Positions 2,484 to 36,545 of a stretch of DNA of 64,000 nt are shown piece after piece. Made by a program: the position numbers and the translations under genes. The DNA lies in the NCBI GenBank assembly GCA_963778625.1, contig CAVZVB010000014.1:340849-404848 (forward strand), in the 5' to 3' direction. Every line of letters begins with the position of its first letter. Position 1 is the first letter of the stretch. A model generated the notes under the pieces. The model was not told the DNA's origin, ran no database searches, and was given only the letters and a program-made list of their open reading frames with translations. This stretch comes from an uncultured Alphaproteobacteria bacterium. Its GTDB lineage: Bacteria > Pseudomonadota > Alphaproteobacteria > Rhizobiales > Afifellaceae.

Positions 2484-3784
2484 CGCCGACCGTCGTCGCC
2501 ACGATCCTTTTCGGCCTGTTCCTCTTCTTCATCATAATGAGGGTGCCGGTCGCGTTCGCGCTGGCGCTCGCCTGCCTGCCGATCTTCTTCCTGGACGACC
2601 GGCTGACGCCGATCCTGCTCCTGCAGGAGATGTTCAAGTCCTACAACGCCTTCGTGCTCCTCGCCGTGCCGTTCTTCCTGCTCGCCGCCAATTTGATGAA
2701 CGCCGCGGGGATCACCGACCGGCTGATACGCTTGTCGCGCGCGCTGGTCGGCCATCTCCCCGGCGGGCTCGGCCACGTCAACGTCGTCGTCTCGATGTTC
2801 TTCGCCGGCATCTCCGGAAGCTCGACCGCCGACGCGGCAGGCATCGGCTCGCTTCTGATCCCACAGATGAAGAAGGAAGGCTTCACCTCCTCCTTCGCCG
2901 TCGCCGTCACCGCCTGCTCGTCGGTGATGGGGGTCATCATCCCGCCCTCCATCCTGATGATCGTATGGGGCGGGCTGATGTCGGTGTCGATCGGGGGGCT
3001 CTTCCTCGCCGGGGTCATTCCCGGCGTGCTGATCGCCGCGGCGCAGATGGTCACCGTCTACGTCTATGCGCGCCGGCGCGGCATGGGGCTCCACGCGCGC
3101 GCGACGCTGCGCGAGCTCGCGGTCGCCATCGCCGGGTCGATCCTGGCGCTCGCCACACCGGTCATCATCGTCGGCGGCATCGTCGGCGGCTTCTTCACGC
3201 CGACCGAGGCGTCGGTGGTCGCCGCGCTCTATGCGATGCTGCTCGGCTTCGTCGTCTACCGGACGGTCGGGCTGAAGACCCTCGCCCACGTGCTCTACGA
3301 TACCGGCCGCTTCGCCGGCATCGCGCTTTTCTGCATCGGCACGGCGAGCGCCTTCGGCTGGCTGCTCGCCTATTTCAAAGTGCCGGCGGCTCTGGTCGCC
3401 TACGTGCAGGCGATGAATCTCGGCGTCACCGAGATGGGGCTAGCGGTCGCCATCGCCTTCCTCGTCATCGGCTGCTTCATCGACGCGATCCCGGCGATCA
3501 TCATTCTCGGCACGGTGCTGTGGCCGGTGACGCAGGCGGTCGGCATGCATCCGATCCATTTCGCCATCATCGGGGTGATCAGTCTCGCCTTCGGGCTGGT
3601 GACACCACCTTATGGGCTGTGCCTCCTGATCTCGTGCGCGATCGGCAAGATCTCGGTGCGTGAAGCGATGCGCGACGTAGCCATCATCCTCGCGCCGATG
3701 CTGGCGATCCTGGCGCTCGTGATCTTCTTCCCGTCAGTCTCGCTCTGGCTGCCGCGCCTCCTGATGCCGCAGTTCGTGAACTGA
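2480..3784 (+). CDS. dctM: TRAP transporter large permease DctM
   Basis: Internal ATG of ORF 2183..3784 at 2480 (MTPTVVATILFGLFLFFIIMRVPVAFALALA...). This is a DctM 12-TM permease and appears intact. Confidence 0.9.
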   Translation: MTPTVVATILFGLFLFFIIMRVPVAFALALACLPIFFLDDRLTPILLLQEMFKSYNAFVLLAVPFFLLAANLMNAAGITDRLIRLSRALVGHLPGGLGHVNVVVSMFFAGISGSSTADAAGIGSLLIPQMKKEGFTSSFAVAVTACSSVMGVIIPPSILMIVWGGLMSVSIGGLFLAGVIPGVLIAAAQMVTVYVYARRRGMGLHARATLRELAVAIAGSILALATPVIIVGGIVGGFFTPTEASVVAALYAMLLGFVVYRTVGLKTLAHVLYDTGRFAGIALFCIGTASAFGWLLAYFKVPAALVAYVQAMNLGVTEMGLAVAIAFLVIGCFIDAIPAIIILGTVLWPVTQAVGMHPIHFAIIGVISLAFGLVTPPYGLCLLISCAIGKISVREAMRDVAIILAPMLAILALVIFFPSVSLWLPRLLMPQFVN

Positions 3785-3790
3785 CCCGAC

Positions 3791-3826
3791 AAAAAAAGAG
3801 GGCGCGACCGCGCCGCGCCCTTTTCC
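3791..3826. terminator. bidirectional rho-independent terminator between dctM (+) and leuA (-)
   Basis: AAAAAAAGAGGGCGCGACCGCGCCGCGCCCTTTTCC: a GC stem (GGGCGCG/CGCGCCC) flanked by an A-tract and a T-tract. Confidence 0.6.
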
Positions 3827-3845
3827 AAAACCTTCTTGCTCTCGC

Positions 3846-5414
3846 TCACGCCGTCTGTGCGGCCTGCGCATGGATGCGGTCGCGACGCGCCGAGAGCTTG
3901 TTCAACGCCGAGAGGTAGGCCTTGGCGGAAGCGACGAGCGTGTCGGTGTCCGCCGCCCTGCCGGTGTAGGTCTTGCCGGCGGCCTGCAGGCGCACCGAGA
4001 CCTCGGCCTGCGCGTCGGTGCCCTCGGTGACGGCGCTCACCTGATAGAGCTCAAGCTGCGCCTCGTGCGGGACGAGCGCCTTGATGCAGTTCAGGATCGC
4101 GTCGACGGGCCCGTTGCCGGTCGACTGGATCGTCTTGTGCTCGCCTTCGATGTCGAGGGTGATGGTGGCGGATTGCGGTCCCATCGTTCCGGCGATGATC
4201 GTCGCGGAGAGAAGGCGGATGCGGTCGTGCGCGGAAGCGATCTCCTCGTCGACCAGCGCCTCGATGTCCTCGTCGTAGACGTGCTTCTTGCGGTCGGCGA
4301 GCGCCTTGAAGCGGTTGAAGGCGTCCTCAACGGCATTGTCGCCGAGCTGGTAGCCGAGCTCCTTCAGCTTCGACTTGAAGGCGGCCCGCCCGGAATGCTT
4401 GCCCATGATCAGCGAGGTCTTCGACACGCCGACCAATTCCGGCGTCATGATCTCGTAGGTGTTCGCATGCTTCAGCATCCCGTCCTGGTGGATGCCGCTT
4501 TCATGCGCGAACGCGTTCCGCCCGACGATCGCCTTGTTGTACTGGACCGGGAACGAGGTCACCGCCGAGACGAGCCGCGAGGCGCGGGTCAACTGCGTCG
4601 TATCGATGCCGGTCGTGTAGGGCAGCGCGTCGCCGCGGGTCTTCAGCGCCATCACGACTTCTTCGAGCGCCGCGTTGCCGGCGCGCTCGCCGAGCCCGTT
4701 GATGGTGCACTCGACCTGCCGCGCGCCGGCCTCCACGCCGGCGAGCGAGTTCGCCACCGCGAGCCCGAGGTCGTCGTGGCAATGCACCGAGAAGACCGCT
4801 TTGTCGGAATTCGGCACCCGCTCGCGAACGGCGCGGAACATCGCGCCGTATTCCTCCGGGGTGGCGTAGCCGACCGTGTCGGGCAGGTTGATCGTCGTCG
4901 CGCCGGCGCGGATCGCCTGGTCGACGCAACGGCAGAGATAGTCGATCGGGGTGCGGGTCGCGTCCATCGCGGACCATTCGACGTTGTCGACGAGGTTGCG
5001 CGCCTGGGCCACGGTCGCCTGGATGATCTCGACAACCTCGTCCTCGCCCTTGCGCATCTGGTGCGCGAGGTGGATCGGGGAGGTGGAGACGAAGGTATGG
5101 ATGCGCGGGTGCTTGGCGTGCTTCACCGCCTCTCCGGCGCGGGCGATGTCGGCGGAGATCGCGCGGGCGAGCCCGGCAACGACCGCCTTCTTCACACGCC
5201 GTGCAATCTCCGCGACCGCCTCGAAATCGCCCTGCGAGGCGATCGGGAAGCCGGCCTCGATGATGTCGACGCCCATCTCGTCGAGGATGTCGGCGACCTC
5301 GAGCTTCTCCTCCAACGTCATCGTCGCGCCCGGGCATTGCTCGCCGTCGCGCAGCGTGGTGTCGAAGATCACCACGCGGTTGTTGTCGCTTTGCGCTTTC
5401 TTGGTTGCGCTCAT
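3846..5414 (-). CDS. leuA: 2-isopropylmalate synthase
   Basis: ORF 3846..5462 with internal start [57 protein letters not shown]... This is the long-form LeuA with its C-terminal regulatory domain and appears intact. Confidence 0.95.
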
Positions 5415-14534: not shown

Positions 14535-15990
14535 ATGACCACGACGCGCCGATCGCAATCCAAGCGCACCAGCGGACTGCCGGCGCCGCTTCTTGCCGCG
14601 CTCTACCTCGCGGCGGTTGCGGTGCCGCTGGCGCTTGCCGGCTTCTCCGGCATCGAATCGGCCGGGCCGTGGAGCGAGGCCGCGACGGCATAGGCATCGT
14701 CGGCACCGTCATGCTGTTCCTGCAGCTGGTGAGCAGCGGCCGGTTCGAGAGCCTCTCCGGCCGCATCGGCATCGACGTCACGATGGCGTTCCACAAATGG
14801 GCGGCGCGGCTGACGGTCGTCGCCATCCTCTTGCATCCGCTCCTCTTCGTCGCTCCGATCGATCTCCAGCAGCCCGGCGCGCCCTTCAACCATCTCGCCG
14901 CGATGCTCTCCGCGCCGCGCTATCTGAGCGGCGTCGTGGCCCTCGTGCTCGTCGTCACCGTCGTCCTCCTCGCCACGCTCCGGGACCGGCTGCCGGTTCC
15001 CTACGAGGCGTGGCGCGCAAGCCACGGACTGATGGCGCTTGCCGCCGCCTGGGCGACGATGCAGCACCTCGGCGCCGTCGGCACCTATTCAAGCGACCGC
15101 TGGCTTGATCGCCTACTGGCTCATCCTTGCGCTCTGCGCGACTGCTGCAGCGCTTGGCGTCTACACGATCCGCGCATGGCGCATGCGCAGTCAGGGCTGG
15201 CGCATCACCGACCGCCGGCAGATAGCCGAGCACCTTTGGAAGATCACGGTGACGGGCGCCGGCGACGAGCGCCTTGACTTCAGACCTGGCCAGTTCGCAT
15301 GGCTGGCTTTCGCGCCGCGGCGGTTCCCGCTCTTCGATCATCCCTTCTCGATCGCCTCGGCCTCAGGCGATGGCGGAACGCTCAGCTTCATCATCCGCGA
15401 GGCCGGCGACTTCACCGGGAAGATCGGCTCCCTGCCGATCGGGACCGCGGTCGGCATCGACGCCCCGCACGGCAGCTTCACCCTCGACGGGATCGATGCA
15501 GACGCCGTCCTGCTCGTCGCCGGCGGCGTCGGCATCGCAGCCGTCGTCGGCCTCCTCGGCGCGCTCGCCGAGAACGGCGATCACGGCCGGTCCGCCTCAT
15601 CTGCGGCGCGCGCGAGCCGCAATCGCTGATCGCACCGGCTGAGCTTCAGCCGGCCCTCGACCGGCTCGACGCGCGCATCTTCTTCCTCGTCGACACGCCG
15701 TCGGAGGGATGGGCGCACGGCATCGGGCCGATCTCGAAAGCGCGGCTGGCGGAGGCGCTTGCCGGCCTCGACCCGCAGCGGACGGCCGCCATGATCTGCG
15801 GTCCCGGCCCTATGATGACCGCCGTCACCGACGACCTGCACGCGCTCGGCGTGCCATATCGCAATATCCGCTACGAGCGCTTCGACTACGCCGGCGGCCG
15901 CGCTCCGGCAAGGATCGCCGCGTCATGGCGAGTTTTTGGGCGATGGCGCTGGCGATTGTCGCGGCCGGCGCCGCCTTCGCGCTGCGCTGA
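14535..15990 (+). CDS. ferric-reductase-like transmembrane domain + FAD/NAD(P)-binding oxidoreductase (multiply frameshifted)
   Basis: Ferric_reduct-type TM helices with His (AARLTVVAILLHPLLF...), an FAD-binding segment (RPGQFAWLAFAPRRFPLFDHPFSIASAS) and an NAD-binding segment (LLVAGGVGIAAVVGLLG ... ICGPGPMMTAVTDDLHALGVPYRNIRYERF). These are split over ORFs 14478, 14669, 15039 and 15299. Confidence 0.7.
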
Positions 15991-16362
15991 GCGTCACCTC
16001 TCGAGCAGAAACGCGATCAGGTCCGCGCGCATGGCCGCGATCAGGCGCGTGGTGCTCCGGCAGGAAGGCGGCGAGCCACGCCGCTTTCTCCTCCGCCGTT
16101 CCGCCGTCGATGCGGCGCGCGATGCGGGCGGCGGAGGCGTGGCATCGCGCGCAGGCGCTCGCATAGGCGGCCTCGCCGCCTACCGGATCGCCTTCCGCCA
16201 TCGCTTCATTCCGAGCGCTCCAAGAAGCGCCAAGAGAACCAGAACACGGCTCATCAGCACGCTGCCTTCGATCATCTGACAATGGTGATCGTCTCCGCCG
16301 CCCTCGTGATCGCGGTATAGAGCCAGCGGTCGCGCGTGTCCCGGAAGGCGAAGCTCTCGTCG
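15923..16362 (-). CDS. possible small c-type cytochrome (CxxCH), frameshifted; weak
   Basis: A signal-like N-terminus MSRVLVLLALLGALG (ORF 16180..16383) and a CARCH haem-binding motif in ORF 15923..16282. It overlaps the 3' end of the helicase gene by ~90 nt, which lowers confidence. Confidence 0.3.
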
Positions 16363-17393
16363 AAGAGCACGATGTTGTCCCATTGCGAGCCTTGCGCCTT
16401 GTGCACGGTCAGCGCGTAGCCGTAGTCGAACTCGTCGGTGCGGCGGCGGCGGTCGAAGGGCACGGCCTCCGGCCCCTCCTCGAACATCGCCTTCAAGACG
16501 CGGATCTTCGCGGAGGTGCCGTGCGGCCCCTCGTCCTCCGACTTCACCAGCATGTTGATCGCCTGCCCGGCGCGCGTGCCGACCGAGGAGACGCGCCAGA
16601 GCCCGCCGTTCAAAAGCCCCTTCTCCGAGCTGTTCCTGAGGCAGACGAGCTTGTCGCCGGCGGCGGGAAGCAAATCCTCAAAGCCCTTCAGCGCGCGGAT
16701 GCGGCGATTGAAGTTCTGCCTGGTGCGATTGCGGCCGACGAGCACCTGGTCGGCGGAAAGCACGTCGTCGGCTTCGATCTCGTCACGCGTGATGACGCGG
16801 CTTTCGCCGTAGCTGCCGTAGTCCGGCTTGCCGCCCTCGCGCACGGTTTGCGAAAGCGCGATGATCGGGTTCTCGCGCGCCTGCCGGTGGATCTCGGTCA
16901 GCATGACGTCCGGCGCATGTTCGGTGAAGAAGCCGGCGCCGCCCTCCGACTTCACCGGCGGGAGCTGGCCCGGATCGCCGAGCACCAGAATCTTGGTGCC
17001 GAAGGAAAGCAGGTCGCCGCCGAGCTTCTCGTCGACCATGGAGCATTCGTCGACGATGACGAGCTTCGCCTTCCTGACCTCGCTCGAACGATTGAGCGCG
17101 AAGGCAGGCTGCAGCTCGCCCGTCTCCTTCTCCGCCTTCTCGCCACGCGGGCGGTAGATCAGCGAGTGAAGCGTGCGCGCGTTGGCGCAGCCGCGATTGC
17201 GCATCACCTGCGCGGCCTTGCCGGTGAAGGCGGCGAAAAGAACGTCGCCGCCGCAATCGTCGGCGATCCTCTTCGCCAGCGTCGTCTTCCCCGTGCCGGC
17301 AAAGCCGAAGAGGCGGAAGACCTGCGGCATCGGCGATTTCAGCCAGCGCGCGACGGCTTGAAGCGCTGCGTCCTGCTGGGGTGAGACTTCCAT
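16272..17393 (-). CDS. compact RecD/Dda-like SF1 DNA helicase (AAA_30/UvrD_C_2 type), 373 aa
   Basis: Walker A FGFAGTGKTT, LVIVDECSMVD and VLGDPGQLPPV motifs, and the C-terminal motif YALTVHKAQGSQWDNIVL. It appears intact. Confidence 0.85.
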   Translation of the reverse strand: MEVSPQQDAALQAVARWLKSPMPQVFRLFGFAGTGKTTLAKRIADDCGGDVLFAAFTGKAAQVMRNRGCANARTLHSLIYRPRGEKAEKETGELQPAFALNRSSEVRKAKLVIVDECSMVDEKLGGDLLSFGTKILVLGDPGQLPPVKSEGGAGFFTEHAPDVMLTEIHRQARENPIIALSQTVREGGKPDYGSYGESRVITRDEIEADDVLSADQVLVGRNRTRQNFNRRIRALKGFEDLLPAAGDKLVCLRNSSEKGLLNGGLWRVSSVGTRAGQAINMLVKSEDEGPHGTSAKIRVLKAMFEEGPEAVPFDRRRRTDEFDYGYALTVHKAQGSQWDNIVLFDESFAFRDTRDRWLYTAITRAAETITIVR

Positions 17394-17403
17394 CCGCGCG
17401 GCG

Positions 17404-17580
17404 CTATTCCGACACGGGTCTGCGGCGCGCCCTTTGGGCAGCCCATGCGCGGTCGCACTTGAGGCGCCTCAGTGCATCGATCACCGAGATGCGCACGACC
17501 TCCGTCAGTGTCGTATTCCACCGCCGAGCCAGTTCGCGAACCATCGCGTCCGCCTCGGGGTCAGAAATGTGGATCGTCAT
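17404..17580 (-). CDS. ribbon-helix-helix antitoxin-like protein (PSK/Rv0623-like VapB family), 58 aa
   Basis: Below the 60-aa ORF-track cutoff. Reverse translation gives MTIHISDPEADAMVRELARRWNTTLTEVVRISVIDALRRLKCDRAWAAQRARRRPVSE. The stop lies 10 nt upstream of the helicase start. Confidence 0.5.
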   Translation of the reverse strand: MTIHISDPEADAMVRELARRWNTTLTEVVRISVIDALRRLKCDRAWAAQRARRRPVSE

Positions 17581-17652
17581 TCGTGACTCCAGATGTCAGC
17601 TACCTAACACCTGGAGTGGAACACAACAAGAACCTGCTCCTCCCAACCGGCG

Positions 17653-18066
17653 CTATTCCACCATCTCGCAGCAGCCGGTGCCCTGCACTGTCATCGGGTG
17701 GCTGGAAAGCGCGCCCTGGGTGTAGGTCACCGTCACGGAGAAGCCGGTCTGCTCGTCGTTCGGCTTGGTGCAGCTTTGGCCGACGATATTGGCGACAAGC
17801 GAAAGGGGAGCATCGGTCGTCACCTCGAAGTCGTTCGGGCTTCCCTGCAGGAGGCAGCCGTCGACAACAAGCGGCTCGCTCTGCCAGTTCGGGTTCTCCG
17901 GATCGACGAAGCTGACGGCGTGGCCGCTGTCCACGCCGGTCGTGAACTGCCAGTTCGGCTCGAAGCCGTCGCATTTGAATTTGAAGCCGAGGCAAAGGTC
18001 GGCGGCGCCGGCGGGCGCCACGCTGACGGCCAGAGCCAAGATCGTCGCAACGCTGATACGCAACAT
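17653..18066 (-). CDS. secreted hypothetical protein
   Basis: ORF 17653..18135 with internal start MLRISVATILALAVSVAPAGAADLC (signal peptide). Six Cys in the mature part. No family recognised. Confidence 0.5.
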   Translation of the reverse strand: MLRISVATILALAVSVAPAGAADLCLGFKFKCDGFEPNWQFTTGVDSGHAVSFVDPENPNWQSEPLVVDGCLLQGSPNDFEVTTDAPLSLVANIVGQSCTKPNDEQTGFSVTVTYTQGALSSHPMTVQGTGCCEMVE

Positions 18067-18183
18067 CAGGCTTTCCTCCCCGTCCCGGCACATGCCGGAT
18101 GCTCGCATTACGAGCGGGGAATTTGGCCCGAACATGACGGCGGCGCCGAGATGTCCCGGCGCCGCCTCAACAACGATCTGCGC

Positions 18184-19355
18184 TCAGCGCTGCGGCGGAT
18201 GCCGCATGAAGGCCGCGCGCAGAATCTCAAGCCTGATCCCGAGCACGCGGGACGCGCGACGCAGGTCGGGCGGCGGCGCGCCGACAGCCTGCCGCAGCGC
18301 CTCCACATCGACGCCGAGGTCGTCAGCCACGGCGGCGAGCACATTGCCGCCCGGCCCGCCGGGGCCTCCCTGACCACCGGGGCCGGCCTGGCCGCCGGGG
18401 CCGCCCATCGGCGGGCCGCCTGCGCCACCGGGCCCAAGGCCCGCATTCGCCGGCCCGGCACCGCCTGATGGGCGCGGCGCCCGCACCGGCGTACCGCGGA
18501 AGCAGCCGACCGAGTAGGGATAATCGTCGGTCATGCGATAGTGGTACATGGTGACGAGCTTGCCGTCCCACATCACCGGGCCCACGAGGCCATGACACTC
18601 GTCGAGGTCGGCATTCGTGACCTTGTGACCGTCCGCTTCGTAGGGCCCGTAGATGCCGAAGCCGTCAAGCGCGTAGCCGATCAGCTCGCTGCCGCCCGAC
18701 GCGTCGCGCCCATGCGGCAGGCACGGCGTCAGATTGTGGTAGTGATACTGACCCCCCTGCTGCGGATGGCCGCCGCATTTGTCCTGCACTTCGTGCGCGG
18801 GCGCGTCCCGACCACCGGCATCGACGGCGTTGTAGATCGCTCCGCCGACGAGCGTGAAGCCGATCATCCCCATCGGCACGCAGCTCGCATGGGCAGCGAT
18901 CTCGGGTCGGCAGGCAGGCGAAGCAGGATATTCTGCTCGCGGATCCTGTTCGGGTTGCGAGCGTAGCGAAAGGCGGGGTCGCTCGGGGAGACCGGGAAGA
19001 CGCCGGTCGCGTGGGTCGGCAGGTTGTTCGCCCTGACAACGCGCGTGTCGCCCTCGCGCGTCGCCGAAACCTCGGCATTCGGCCAGTAGACGTTTCCGTC
19101 GATGGTCGGTTTTTGGCTGAGGTCGTAGCTGCCGCCCGTGATCCACGGAACGCTTGCCCGCGCGCCGGCCGCGGCCGCAGAGAACTGCTGCTGGCACGAG
19201 AACAGGTAGCCCCGCTTCGGCGCGTTGGAAATCTTGCCGTCGCCGAGGGCGTGCATGTCGTGCGCTGCCGCACCCGGTGCCGCGGCGAGCGCGGCGAGAA
19301 GCGCCGCGGAAGTGACGAGCGCCGCCACTGTCGGCGCCGAAAGATTACGGGTCAT
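18184..19355 (-). CDS. YHYH-motif secreted protein with Gly/Pro-rich repeat region (frameshift ~18900)
   Basis: Signal peptide MTRNLSAPTVAALVTSAALLAALAAAPGAAA (ORF 18864..19355) and GGHPQQGGQYHYHNLTPCLP (YHYH motif) in ORF 18184..19197. A GPGG low-complexity run precedes the C-terminus. Confidence 0.7.
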
Positions 19356-36048: not shown

Positions 36049-36194
36049 CGGGGGAAATGTAGTGCGATTCCCGTCGTCCGCCTATTCGGGCAGCGCCCAA
36101 CGCGAGAAGATCGGGGAAACCAGCCCAGGCCGTGCCGCTTTTAATGGCGGCCGGAAAACCTTATATTCCCAGGTGCCGGGGCAACCCGGCTATG

Positions 36195-36545
36195 GCGATA
36201 AACGGGCTACGTAATAAACCTATCGGACCCGGGGGCAGTACCCGGCGCCTCCACCATGAACCCTGCTTCGCGAAAGCTTCGCAGGGCTGATGATGGGGGC
36301 GAAACAGGATCGACGAGGGCGTAAAGGTCGCTTTTTCGCTCGGTATGGTACCCGCCGTTATCGGGCCAAACATATAGTTGCAAATGACAACTATGCTCCG
36401 GTGGCCCTCGCCGCGTAAGCGGTCTGGGTATCGGAATTCAAGCCCTGAGGGGTAGCACTTTCAGGCGGGGTTCGGAGGCACCTGGCAACAGAAGCCTCCA
36501 CTTCCCCTCCCTGGCTTGTTGCAAGCGCGCGAAGCTGCCACTACG
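36195..36545 (+). ncRNA. ssrA: two-piece (circularly permuted) tmRNA gene
   Basis: Acceptor piece ends ...CCGGGGGCAGTACCCGG-CGCCTCC-ACCA (T-arm, 3' acceptor strand, encoded CCA at ~36253-36255). A ~38-nt hairpin spacer follows. The coding piece starts GGGGGCG (pairs with CGCCTCC) AAACAGGATCGACGAGGG (~36294). Tag reading frame GCA AAT GAC AAC TAT GCT CCG GTG GCC CTC GCC GCG TAA = ANDNYAPVALAA* (36380-36418). Confidence 0.75.

Follow-up and report, generated by a model that had tools for sequence, protein, structure and literature searches.

We analyzed a pair of genes in a 64-kb stretch of DNA (64,000 nt; referred to here as the window) from an uncultured alphaproteobacterium of the family Afifellaceae (assembly GCA_963778625.1, contig CAVZVB010000014.1). 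The pair consists of a short gene encoding a protein with a ribbon-helix-helix (RHH) domain and, downstream from it, a gene encoding a compact helicase. On the minus strand, the RHH open reading frame (ORF; 58 amino acids (aa), 17404-17580) is followed by a gap of 10 nt (17394-17403) and then by the helicase gene (373 aa, 16272-17393). Upstream from the RHH gene are an inverted repeat and a match to the LexA (SOS) box of alphaproteobacteria.

An earlier reading of the letters alone (the original prediction) had placed the two ORFs on this strand with these sizes and this spacing. It had also assigned the RHH protein to the Rv0623/VapB family of antitoxins, whose normal partner is a PIN-domain toxin, and had described an operon-like arrangement in which the helicase gene is intact and most of its neighbors are broken. 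All of this held up. The two genes are co-oriented and tightly spaced, the match to the antitoxin family is significant (PF07704, 41.1 bits), sister loci carry the toxin gene vapC, the helicase has kept all of its invariant residues, and each of three neighboring genes is spread over more than one frame.

The RHH gene resembles the DNA-binding half of vapB

Codons 1-46 of the RHH gene (17443-17580, minus strand) correspond to the conserved DNA-binding half of a VapB antitoxin. The match to PF07704 (PSK_trans_fac, Rv0623/VapB-type) was well above the gathering cut-off of 28.3 bits (E 3.6e-10). It covered only profile positions 1-46 of 82, and positions 47-82 were unmatched. In a comparison to structures in the PDB, the RHH protein aligned with residues 1-39 of VapB30 from Mycobacterium tuberculosis (4xgq_B). 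The rest of the gene, codons 47-58 and the stop codon (17404-17442, minus strand), encodes an unconserved tail that differs among versions of the protein and stands in place of the toxin-binding C terminus of VapB. That is, the toxin-binding C-terminal third is missing: the RHH protein has 58 aa, compared to 81-93 aa in intact VapB proteins (PF07704 positions 1-77).

There was also no sign of a toxin gene. A hidden Markov model (HMM) of the PIN domain, built from the VapC proteins of sister loci, had no match in any of the six frames of the window. Of the features that define a VapB protein, this one has the N-terminal RHH domain and lacks both the toxin-binding C terminus and an adjacent PIN gene. 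Because the tail and the cognate PIN gene are both missing, we class the RHH protein as a predicted orphan truncated antitoxin that is not part of a toxin-antitoxin (TA) module.

The sequence GGAG (17587-17590), located 6 nt ahead of the RHH ATG, resembles a Shine-Dalgarno sequence. The spacer between the RHH and helicase genes (17394-17403, minus strand), which, in an alignment of loci, is the slot occupied by vapC in sister genomes, had no predicted site resembling a terminator or a promoter. The only match to Rfam was a sub-threshold S4-leader match inside the helicase ORF (23.5 bits compared to 34.7), and we treated it as chance. RHH domains fold as dimers. The AlphaFold2 model of the RHH monomer (from a 3-sequence alignment), a single long helix, was therefore uninformative and was not used.

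The helicase is an intact and conserved chromosomal gene

The helicase gene (minus strand) encodes an intact DNA helicase of the RecD2/Dda/Pif1-like type. The protein matched AAA_30 (3.4e-26), UvrD_C_2 (1.6e-16), AAA_19 and, in part, RecD2, as well as phrog_325, a 'Dda-like helicase' family (7.9e-108). It keeps every residue that is invariant in an alignment of 23 orthologous sequences, including those in GTGKT, DECSM, GDPGQLPP and HKAQGSQW, and the Walker A and Walker B motifs are intact. The closest solved relative by sequence was RecD2 (E 1.3e-19). A Foldseek search, done with a predicted model of moderate confidence (predicted local distance difference test (pLDDT) 69.8), gave RecD2, DSH9, Dda and Pif1 as the top matches; identity to solved structures is just 18-25%. 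The complete set of motifs, together with the fold, places the protein in helicase superfamily 1B (SF1B). As expected for this family, it is predicted to catalyze ATP-dependent unwinding in the 5'-to-3' direction.

A protein search found more than 8000 relatives of the helicase. Full-length orthologues, 62-97% identical, are present in Propylenella, Lutibaculum, Amorphus, Rhodobium, Afifella and Rhizobiaceae, and the first three of these (Hyphomicrobiales) contain the nearest named relatives. Taking one genome per species, there are at least 585 helicase loci, including those in Rhizobium, Mesorhizobium, Agrobacterium, Shinella and Nitratireductor. In the clade that contains the window, the helicase gene is located between ilvI-ilvH and ilvC. 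Its dN/dS (the ratio of nonsynonymous to synonymous substitution rates) is 0.18-0.22. The gene is near-universal, apparently single-copy, and found in this conserved ilvIH-ilvC setting. It is an ancestral chromosomal core gene of the Hyphomicrobiales and is older than the cassette described below.

In one close relative, a member of the 90%-identity protein cluster to which the helicase of the window belongs, the helicase gene is interrupted (L091, 3001-5386; loci are designated here by L numbers). Its ungapped identity is 87%. The locus contains a fused ORF of 490 aa, then a 197-aa ORF on the opposite strand, and a separate piece of 60 aa with UvrD_C_2, which suggests that ~0.9 kb has been inserted toward the 3' end of the helicase gene.

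A LexA box is conserved upstream from the helicase

An exact match to GTTC-N7-GTTC, the alphaproteobacterial LexA box GTTCTTGTTGTGTTC (17619-17633, minus strand), has its 5' end 53 nt upstream from the RHH start codon. GTTC-N7-GTTC is the SOS box of Caulobacter (PMC9578287). Within the 64 kb of the window alone the motif was not significant, with 2 matches compared to 1.8 expected. Because this count matches expectation, the assignment of the LexA box rests on its conservation across loci.

The box was conserved across loci. An alignment of upstream regions contained an invariant GTTCTTGTT..GTTC. Among 86 loci, there were 24 boxes on the sense strand in the 800 bp upstream from the helicases (68 kb), compared to 12 on both strands in the other 1.39 Mb. 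This is an enrichment of ~41-fold (Poisson P ~2e-30, with shared ancestry uncorrected). Five loci (L082, L083, L089, L091 and L092) have a box identical in sequence to that of the window. We also scanned 85 loci with a position weight matrix. In 27 of them the best score was above the 99th percentile of the background distribution, and several Rhizobiaceae had imperfect boxes located at -47 to -60.

The position of the box was also similar from locus to locus. Wherever a vapBC cassette is linked to the helicase, the box is 46-71 nt ahead of the vapB start; in loci with no cassette it is 44-80 nt ahead of the helicase start. Two vapBC pairs that are not linked to the helicase (L087 and L088) have no LexA box. 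A conserved GTTC-N7-GTTC across orthologous promoters is thus present, as in operators of the LexA regulon, and we predict that the helicase is a LexA-regulon gene and that the cassette sits within its leader. Our literature searches found no paper that names this helicase as a target of LexA.

The Mesorhizobium locus L049 has two LexA boxes, one at 2415-2429 (71 nt before vapB) and one at 3927-3941 (74 nt before the helicase). Either duplication of the box or its arrival with the cassette may account for this.

In the window, an inverted repeat (17586-17617) separates the LexA box from the start of the RHH gene. Its 14-nt arms (17586-17599 and 17604-17617) are 86% complementary. The repeat contains the Shine-Dalgarno-like GGAG and, as RNA, folds at -25.2 kcal/mol (z -4.35). 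A comparable repeat, also with 14-nt arms, is in the same place in L082. We consider the repeat in the window a candidate operator for the RHH protein or, as another candidate role, a hairpin in the 5' leader that covers the Shine-Dalgarno sequence.

Two copies of TCTAGAC(GG) are located before vapB in L082 (3307-3344), in L083, and in the unlinked pair L087 (~2460-2495), with the second copy adjoining the Shine-Dalgarno sequence. These two copies probably serve as the operator for VapB proteins of that subtype. In the window, the corresponding positions are occupied by CTCCAGGTGT and ACATCTGGAG, and the RHH protein and its site may have changed together.

Related genomes have vapBC at the same position

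We surveyed 80 sampled genome loci, with ~4 kb of flanking DNA, using HMMs built from the VapB and VapC proteins of sister loci. There was no trace of a cassette in 74 of the 80, and the HMMs matched nowhere else within the flanks. Sister genomes with the order vapB-vapC-helicase have helicases that are 90% (L082), 85% (L083/L084) and 84% (L092) identical to that of the window. In these, vapB (81 aa, PF07704 positions 1-77), vapC (130-136 aa, PIN) and the helicase gene are co-oriented and abut each other. In L082, vapC (3598-3990) fills the position of the spacer in the window and likewise ends 10 nt ahead of the helicase. The flanks of L082 also match those of the window and contain the YHYH gene and a 142-aa secreted protein.

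Cassettes in several states were found in other loci. L031 has an intact vapBC adjoining the helicase. In L049, vapBC is ~0.9 kb upstream from the helicase, with a gene on the opposite strand (246 aa) between vapC and the helicase. L043 has vapB and a frameshifted vapC, L064 has a solo full-length vapB, L023 has an RHH gene that was truncated independently, and L002 has a vapB'-'vapC fusion remnant.

The same range of states was apparent among the closest relatives. We defined the clade of the window as the loci with a helicase at least 81% identical, 12 in all. Three of these have intact vapBC (L082, L083/L084 and L092), five have the short RHH gene (the window, L001, L086, L093 and P0122), and four are empty (L085, L089/L090, L091 and L094). 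The helicase of L089/L090 is 97% identical to that of the window, yet there is no RHH gene next to it. We conclude that the short RHH gene is very probably what is left of a vapBC cassette that decayed within the leader of an ancestral helicase gene. For the allele in the window, we infer that vapC is gone and that vapB has been cut to its N-terminal DNA-binding domain.

The DNA-binding half of the short RHH protein is under purifying selection

Close relatives of the short RHH protein are few. A protein search found P0121 (identical), P0122 and P0123, a metagenome scan found the version in L086, and the version in L093 had not been called as a gene. Short RHH genes often go uncalled (those in L086 and L093 start with TTG) and are therefore under-sampled in protein databases. 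The short versions share the motifs RRWN and LKCDRAW. In all four cases in which the DNA is available (the window, L001, L086 and L093), the RHH gene directly abuts the helicase. P0122 is known from its gene coordinates, and the 295-aa partial gene downstream from it is just presumed to encode the helicase.

We compared codons 2-46 of the short RHH genes in six pairs. The proportion of nonsynonymous sites that differ (pN) was 0.08-0.16, compared to 0.40-0.80 for synonymous sites (pS), which were near saturation. The resulting ratio (omega) was 0.10-0.15 (Fisher P 1e-6 to 1e-10), indicating constraint at least as strong as that on the helicase. The start codon is kept in all versions for which there is DNA. 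The RHH DNA-binding domain is under purifying selection, and the gene, of which independent assemblies contain four further versions, is not a chance ORF.

Beyond W46 the versions are no longer alike: there is a 1-nt indel in the window and a 27-bp duplication in L001, and the stop codons are at different positions. The tail AARKAR..(F/Y)AELKRR, common to L086, L093 and P0122, aligns weakly with KAF(F/Y)D.L in the C terminus of VapB. In L086 and L093 the RHH stop codon overlaps the helicase ATG, and the coordinates of P0122 give the same 4-nt overlap. Because of the low omega (0.10-0.15) and the recurrence of the short RHH gene always beside the helicase, we put the chances at about even that the short protein has been kept as a DNA-binding regulator of the operon.

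A model for the locus and its alternatives

The explanation that we favor, and that we consider probable as a whole, is that the RHH gene is a relic of vapBC that lies between a LexA box and a resident helicase gene and has been kept as a regulator. In part of the clade, a vapB-vapC cassette would have entered downstream from the LexA box and ahead of the helicase start. The short RHH protein would no longer be able to act as an antitoxin, because there is no toxin-binding tail and no toxin gene. LexA would repress a single transcript containing the RHH and helicase genes, and DNA damage, by way of LexA cleavage, would induce both. An RHH dimer would repress by binding the inverted repeat beside the LexA box. 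The transcript that encodes both the RHH protein and the helicase would thereby come under a second form of control that does not depend on DNA damage. The helicase itself would work on damaged DNA or stalled replication forks. Under this model, it would be neither toxic nor an effector of defense that the RHH protein restrains.

The original prediction had put the helicase in place of the PIN toxin in a TA-like or defense module. In such a pair the helicase would be harmful or would be the effector of an anti-phage system, and the RHH protein would control or neutralize it. The two genes are tightly adjacent, the short RHH gene is found only beside this helicase, and PADLOC helicase models, PDC-M16A among them (E 5e-52), match the core of the protein. 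However, the helicase does not qualify as a defense gene: the PADLOC matches (PDC-M16A, type IV RecD and GajB) span just the generic helicase core of profiles that are 690-930 residues long. The helicase is a core gene in the synteny ilvIH-helicase-ilvC, it is alone in most genomes, including the one with the 97%-identical orthologue, the RHH protein has lost the partner-binding tail, and the sister loci have a normal PIN toxin. We consider a functional pair of this kind extremely improbable. The comparison of gene neighborhoods that had been proposed also showed that the pairing is not conserved: 74 of 80 loci, and 4 of 12 close relatives, lack the RHH gene. The converse does hold, since every short RHH gene with available DNA (4/4) abuts the helicase. 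The idea was to be given up if the helicase proved to be a widely conserved core gene always lacking the RHH partner and the RHH ORF proved not to be conserved at the protein level. The helicase is indeed a core gene that is usually without the RHH gene, but the RHH protein is conserved. The other reading offered at the time, that the helicase gene had captured an orphan autoregulator, came closer and is the best fit, in that the RHH protein is under purifying selection and would serve as a regulator.

It is improbable, in our view, that the RHH ORF is a functionless vapB pseudogene that survives in the leader of the helicase transcript. An omega of 0.10-0.15 over codons 2-46 in six pairs, with constraint no weaker than that on the helicase, argues against this, as do the retained start codons, the good Shine-Dalgarno sequence in the window, and the overlap of the RHH stop with the helicase start in L086, L093 and, by coordinates, P0122. 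The features that do fit a pseudogene are the truncated and variable C terminus (indels and a duplication), the complete loss of the ORF in close relatives, and the plain decay products found elsewhere (L002 and L043). A different possibility is that the short RHH gene was never part of vapBC and that a stand-alone RHH regulator came independently to the same slot. Consistent with this, the short RHH protein is about as distant from one intact VapB protein as from another, linked or unlinked, among those compared (31-45% identity across the first 42 positions), and no sequence derived from vapC was recognized in the window. Nonetheless, the short gene occupies the same position as intact vapBC, with the same LexA box on one side and the same helicase start on the other, and its product is a significant member of PF07704. 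The tails EFFADL (P0122), KLYAEL (L086) and AFHAEL (L093) align weakly with KAF(F/Y)D.L of VapB, and the partial truncations in L023, L064 and L002 show a route from vapBC to a solo RHH gene. An independent arrival seems very improbable.

Several points weigh against the explanation based on a vapBC relic retained as a regulator. The RHH gene is often absent, even beside a 97%-identical helicase, and any role that it has is therefore dispensable. With unchanged thresholds, no such inverted repeat was found in L001, L086 or L083, and this lack of conservation in L001 and L086 weakens its assignment as an operator. Scanning 15800-18300 for a sigma-70 consensus gave no promoter, although that consensus may not suit this organism. 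Co-transcription of the two genes, binding by LexA and binding by the RHH protein are all predictions made from sequence.

The relationships among alleles also complicate the history of the slot. The intact, short and empty states are interleaved on the matrix of helicase identities. The helicase of the window (short RHH) is 90% identical to that of L082 (intact), that of L001 (short RHH) is 88.6% identical to that of L085 (empty), and that of L086 (short RHH) is 87.5% identical to that of L083 (intact). Therefore, repeated loss or exchange of alleles by recombination is needed. In addition, the short RHH protein is just 36-40% identical to the intact VapB of sister loci over the first 42 aligned positions, compared to 85-90% for the helicases. 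The short RHH gene is therefore an old, distinct allele. Finally, the VapB and VapC proteins linked to the helicase resemble those of the unlinked pairs L087 and L088 as much as they resemble one another, so one ancient insertion and repeated insertions are indistinguishable.

It is possible, although somewhat unlikely in our estimation, that the short RHH protein is a domesticated antitoxin. Its DNA-binding domain would have been retained by selection after the loss of vapC and would act as a second repressor to tune an SOS-inducible helicase, and the slot would be a site at which three alleles (intact, short and empty) are exchanged by recombination. In a bolder version, vapBC and the helicase would function jointly as one damage-induced unit. 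Such a joint unit would explain why the same TA family is at this slot in lineages as distant as Mesorhizobium and the clade of the window.

Base composition and origin of the cassette

The GC content at third codon positions (GC3) was lower in the cassette than in the helicase gene in every locus compared (the window, L001, L086, L082, L083, L031 and L049; determined per cassette). For example, GC3 was 0.60-0.64 for the cassette and 0.92 for the helicase in L031, 0.56 and 0.90 in L086, and 0.76-0.78 and 0.89 in the window. This lower GC3 suggests a foreign origin for the cassette.

We also considered a recent and simple deletion in a vapBC of the L082 type as the source of the window allele. 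This was ruled out by the identity between the RHH protein and VapB (~38%), compared to that between the helicases (90%).

Other features of the window and of related loci

Genes on both sides of the RHH-helicase pair are split. The gene with a YHYH domain (18184-19355, minus strand) is in two frames with a junction near 18900-18951, and a ferric-reductase-like gene (Ferric_reduct, FAD_binding_8 and NAD_binding_1; 14669-16279, plus strand) is in three. A small CXXCH ORF with a signal peptide (~15990-16252, minus strand), just downstream from the helicase, is also frame-split. Similar splits are found in other metagenome assemblies, in ilvI/ilvH of L085 and in ilvI/ilvC of L094. Because of these, errors in assembly that introduced indels are as likely as real pseudogenes to account for the split neighbors.

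Immediately upstream from the LexA box of the window is an ORF of 160 aa (17653-18135, minus strand) that encodes a predicted secreted, cysteine-containing protein. It had no match in Pfam. An ORF 80% identical to it is located just upstream from the cassette in L082 and L001, and it is absent from L083, L086 and L093. Elsewhere in the window, there is a permuted (two-piece) transfer-messenger RNA gene (36164-36509, plus strand) with the tag peptide ANDNYAPVALAA, which is in keeping with DNA from an alphaproteobacterium.

L093 has genes for a GIY-YIG nuclease and a MazE-type antitoxin between ilvI and ilvH (967-1608), and a transposase gene downstream. Together with the vapBC cassettes, these genes and the downstream transposase suggest that small genes of mobile elements or TA systems accumulate in the stretch from ilvIH through the helicase to ilvC.

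Implications and comparison to known systems

Our results remove a false lead. When a helicase gene is preceded by one that resembles an antitoxin gene, the pair looks like a new TA or defense system, yet here the antitoxin-like gene is very probably what remains of vapBC beside a housekeeping gene for the response to DNA damage. All of the stages in the decay of the cassette are captured in one gene neighborhood, and the locus provides a natural test of whether the DNA-binding half of an antitoxin is kept as a regulator after loss of the toxin. Our analysis also predicts that this compact SF1B helicase belongs to the LexA regulon in many Hyphomicrobiales (relatives of Rhizobium, Mesorhizobium and Agrobacterium).

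The locus resembles several known systems in part. It is like the type II VapBC systems (PF07704) in having the RHH domain, a full pair at the same position in sister genomes, and an upstream inverted repeat as at TA operators. It differs from them in that the window has no PIN gene and no toxin-binding C-terminal third. The helicase is similar in sequence, predicted fold and motifs to RecD2 (3E1S/3GP8), T4 Dda (3UPU) and bacterial Pif1. In contrast to RecD2, which is ~715 aa long and has N-terminal domains, the helicase in the window is 373 aa and lacks those domains.

TA genes are known in SOS operons. In Escherichia coli, dinB-yafN-yafO-yafP contains a type II TA system inside an SOS operon (PMC9578287). 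The likeness is in a TA pair that is co-transcribed with an enzyme of the DNA damage response under the control of LexA. The gene order and the families are different, and LexA control of the locus studied here is predicted from the conserved box.

The closest precedent is in Caulobacter crescentus, in which a foreign higBA is located upstream from the ancestral, LexA-regulated gene higX in a few genomes (PMC13384398). There are differences. The cassette is vapBC and not higBA, the downstream gene encodes an SF1B helicase and not a membrane transcription factor (higX), the cassette in the window has decayed to a solo RHH gene, and the locus in the window is known only as sequence. The two have in common an SOS promoter, a lower GC content in the TA cassette, a conserved ancestral downstream gene, the arrangement of all of these in one co-oriented unit, and the presence of the TA genes in a minority of the genomes that carry the downstream gene. 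The vapBC-helicase locus, with its predicted LexA control, is thus a second, independent case, after higBA-higX, of a TA cassette lodged behind a promoter under LexA control and ahead of an ancestral gene of the SOS response.

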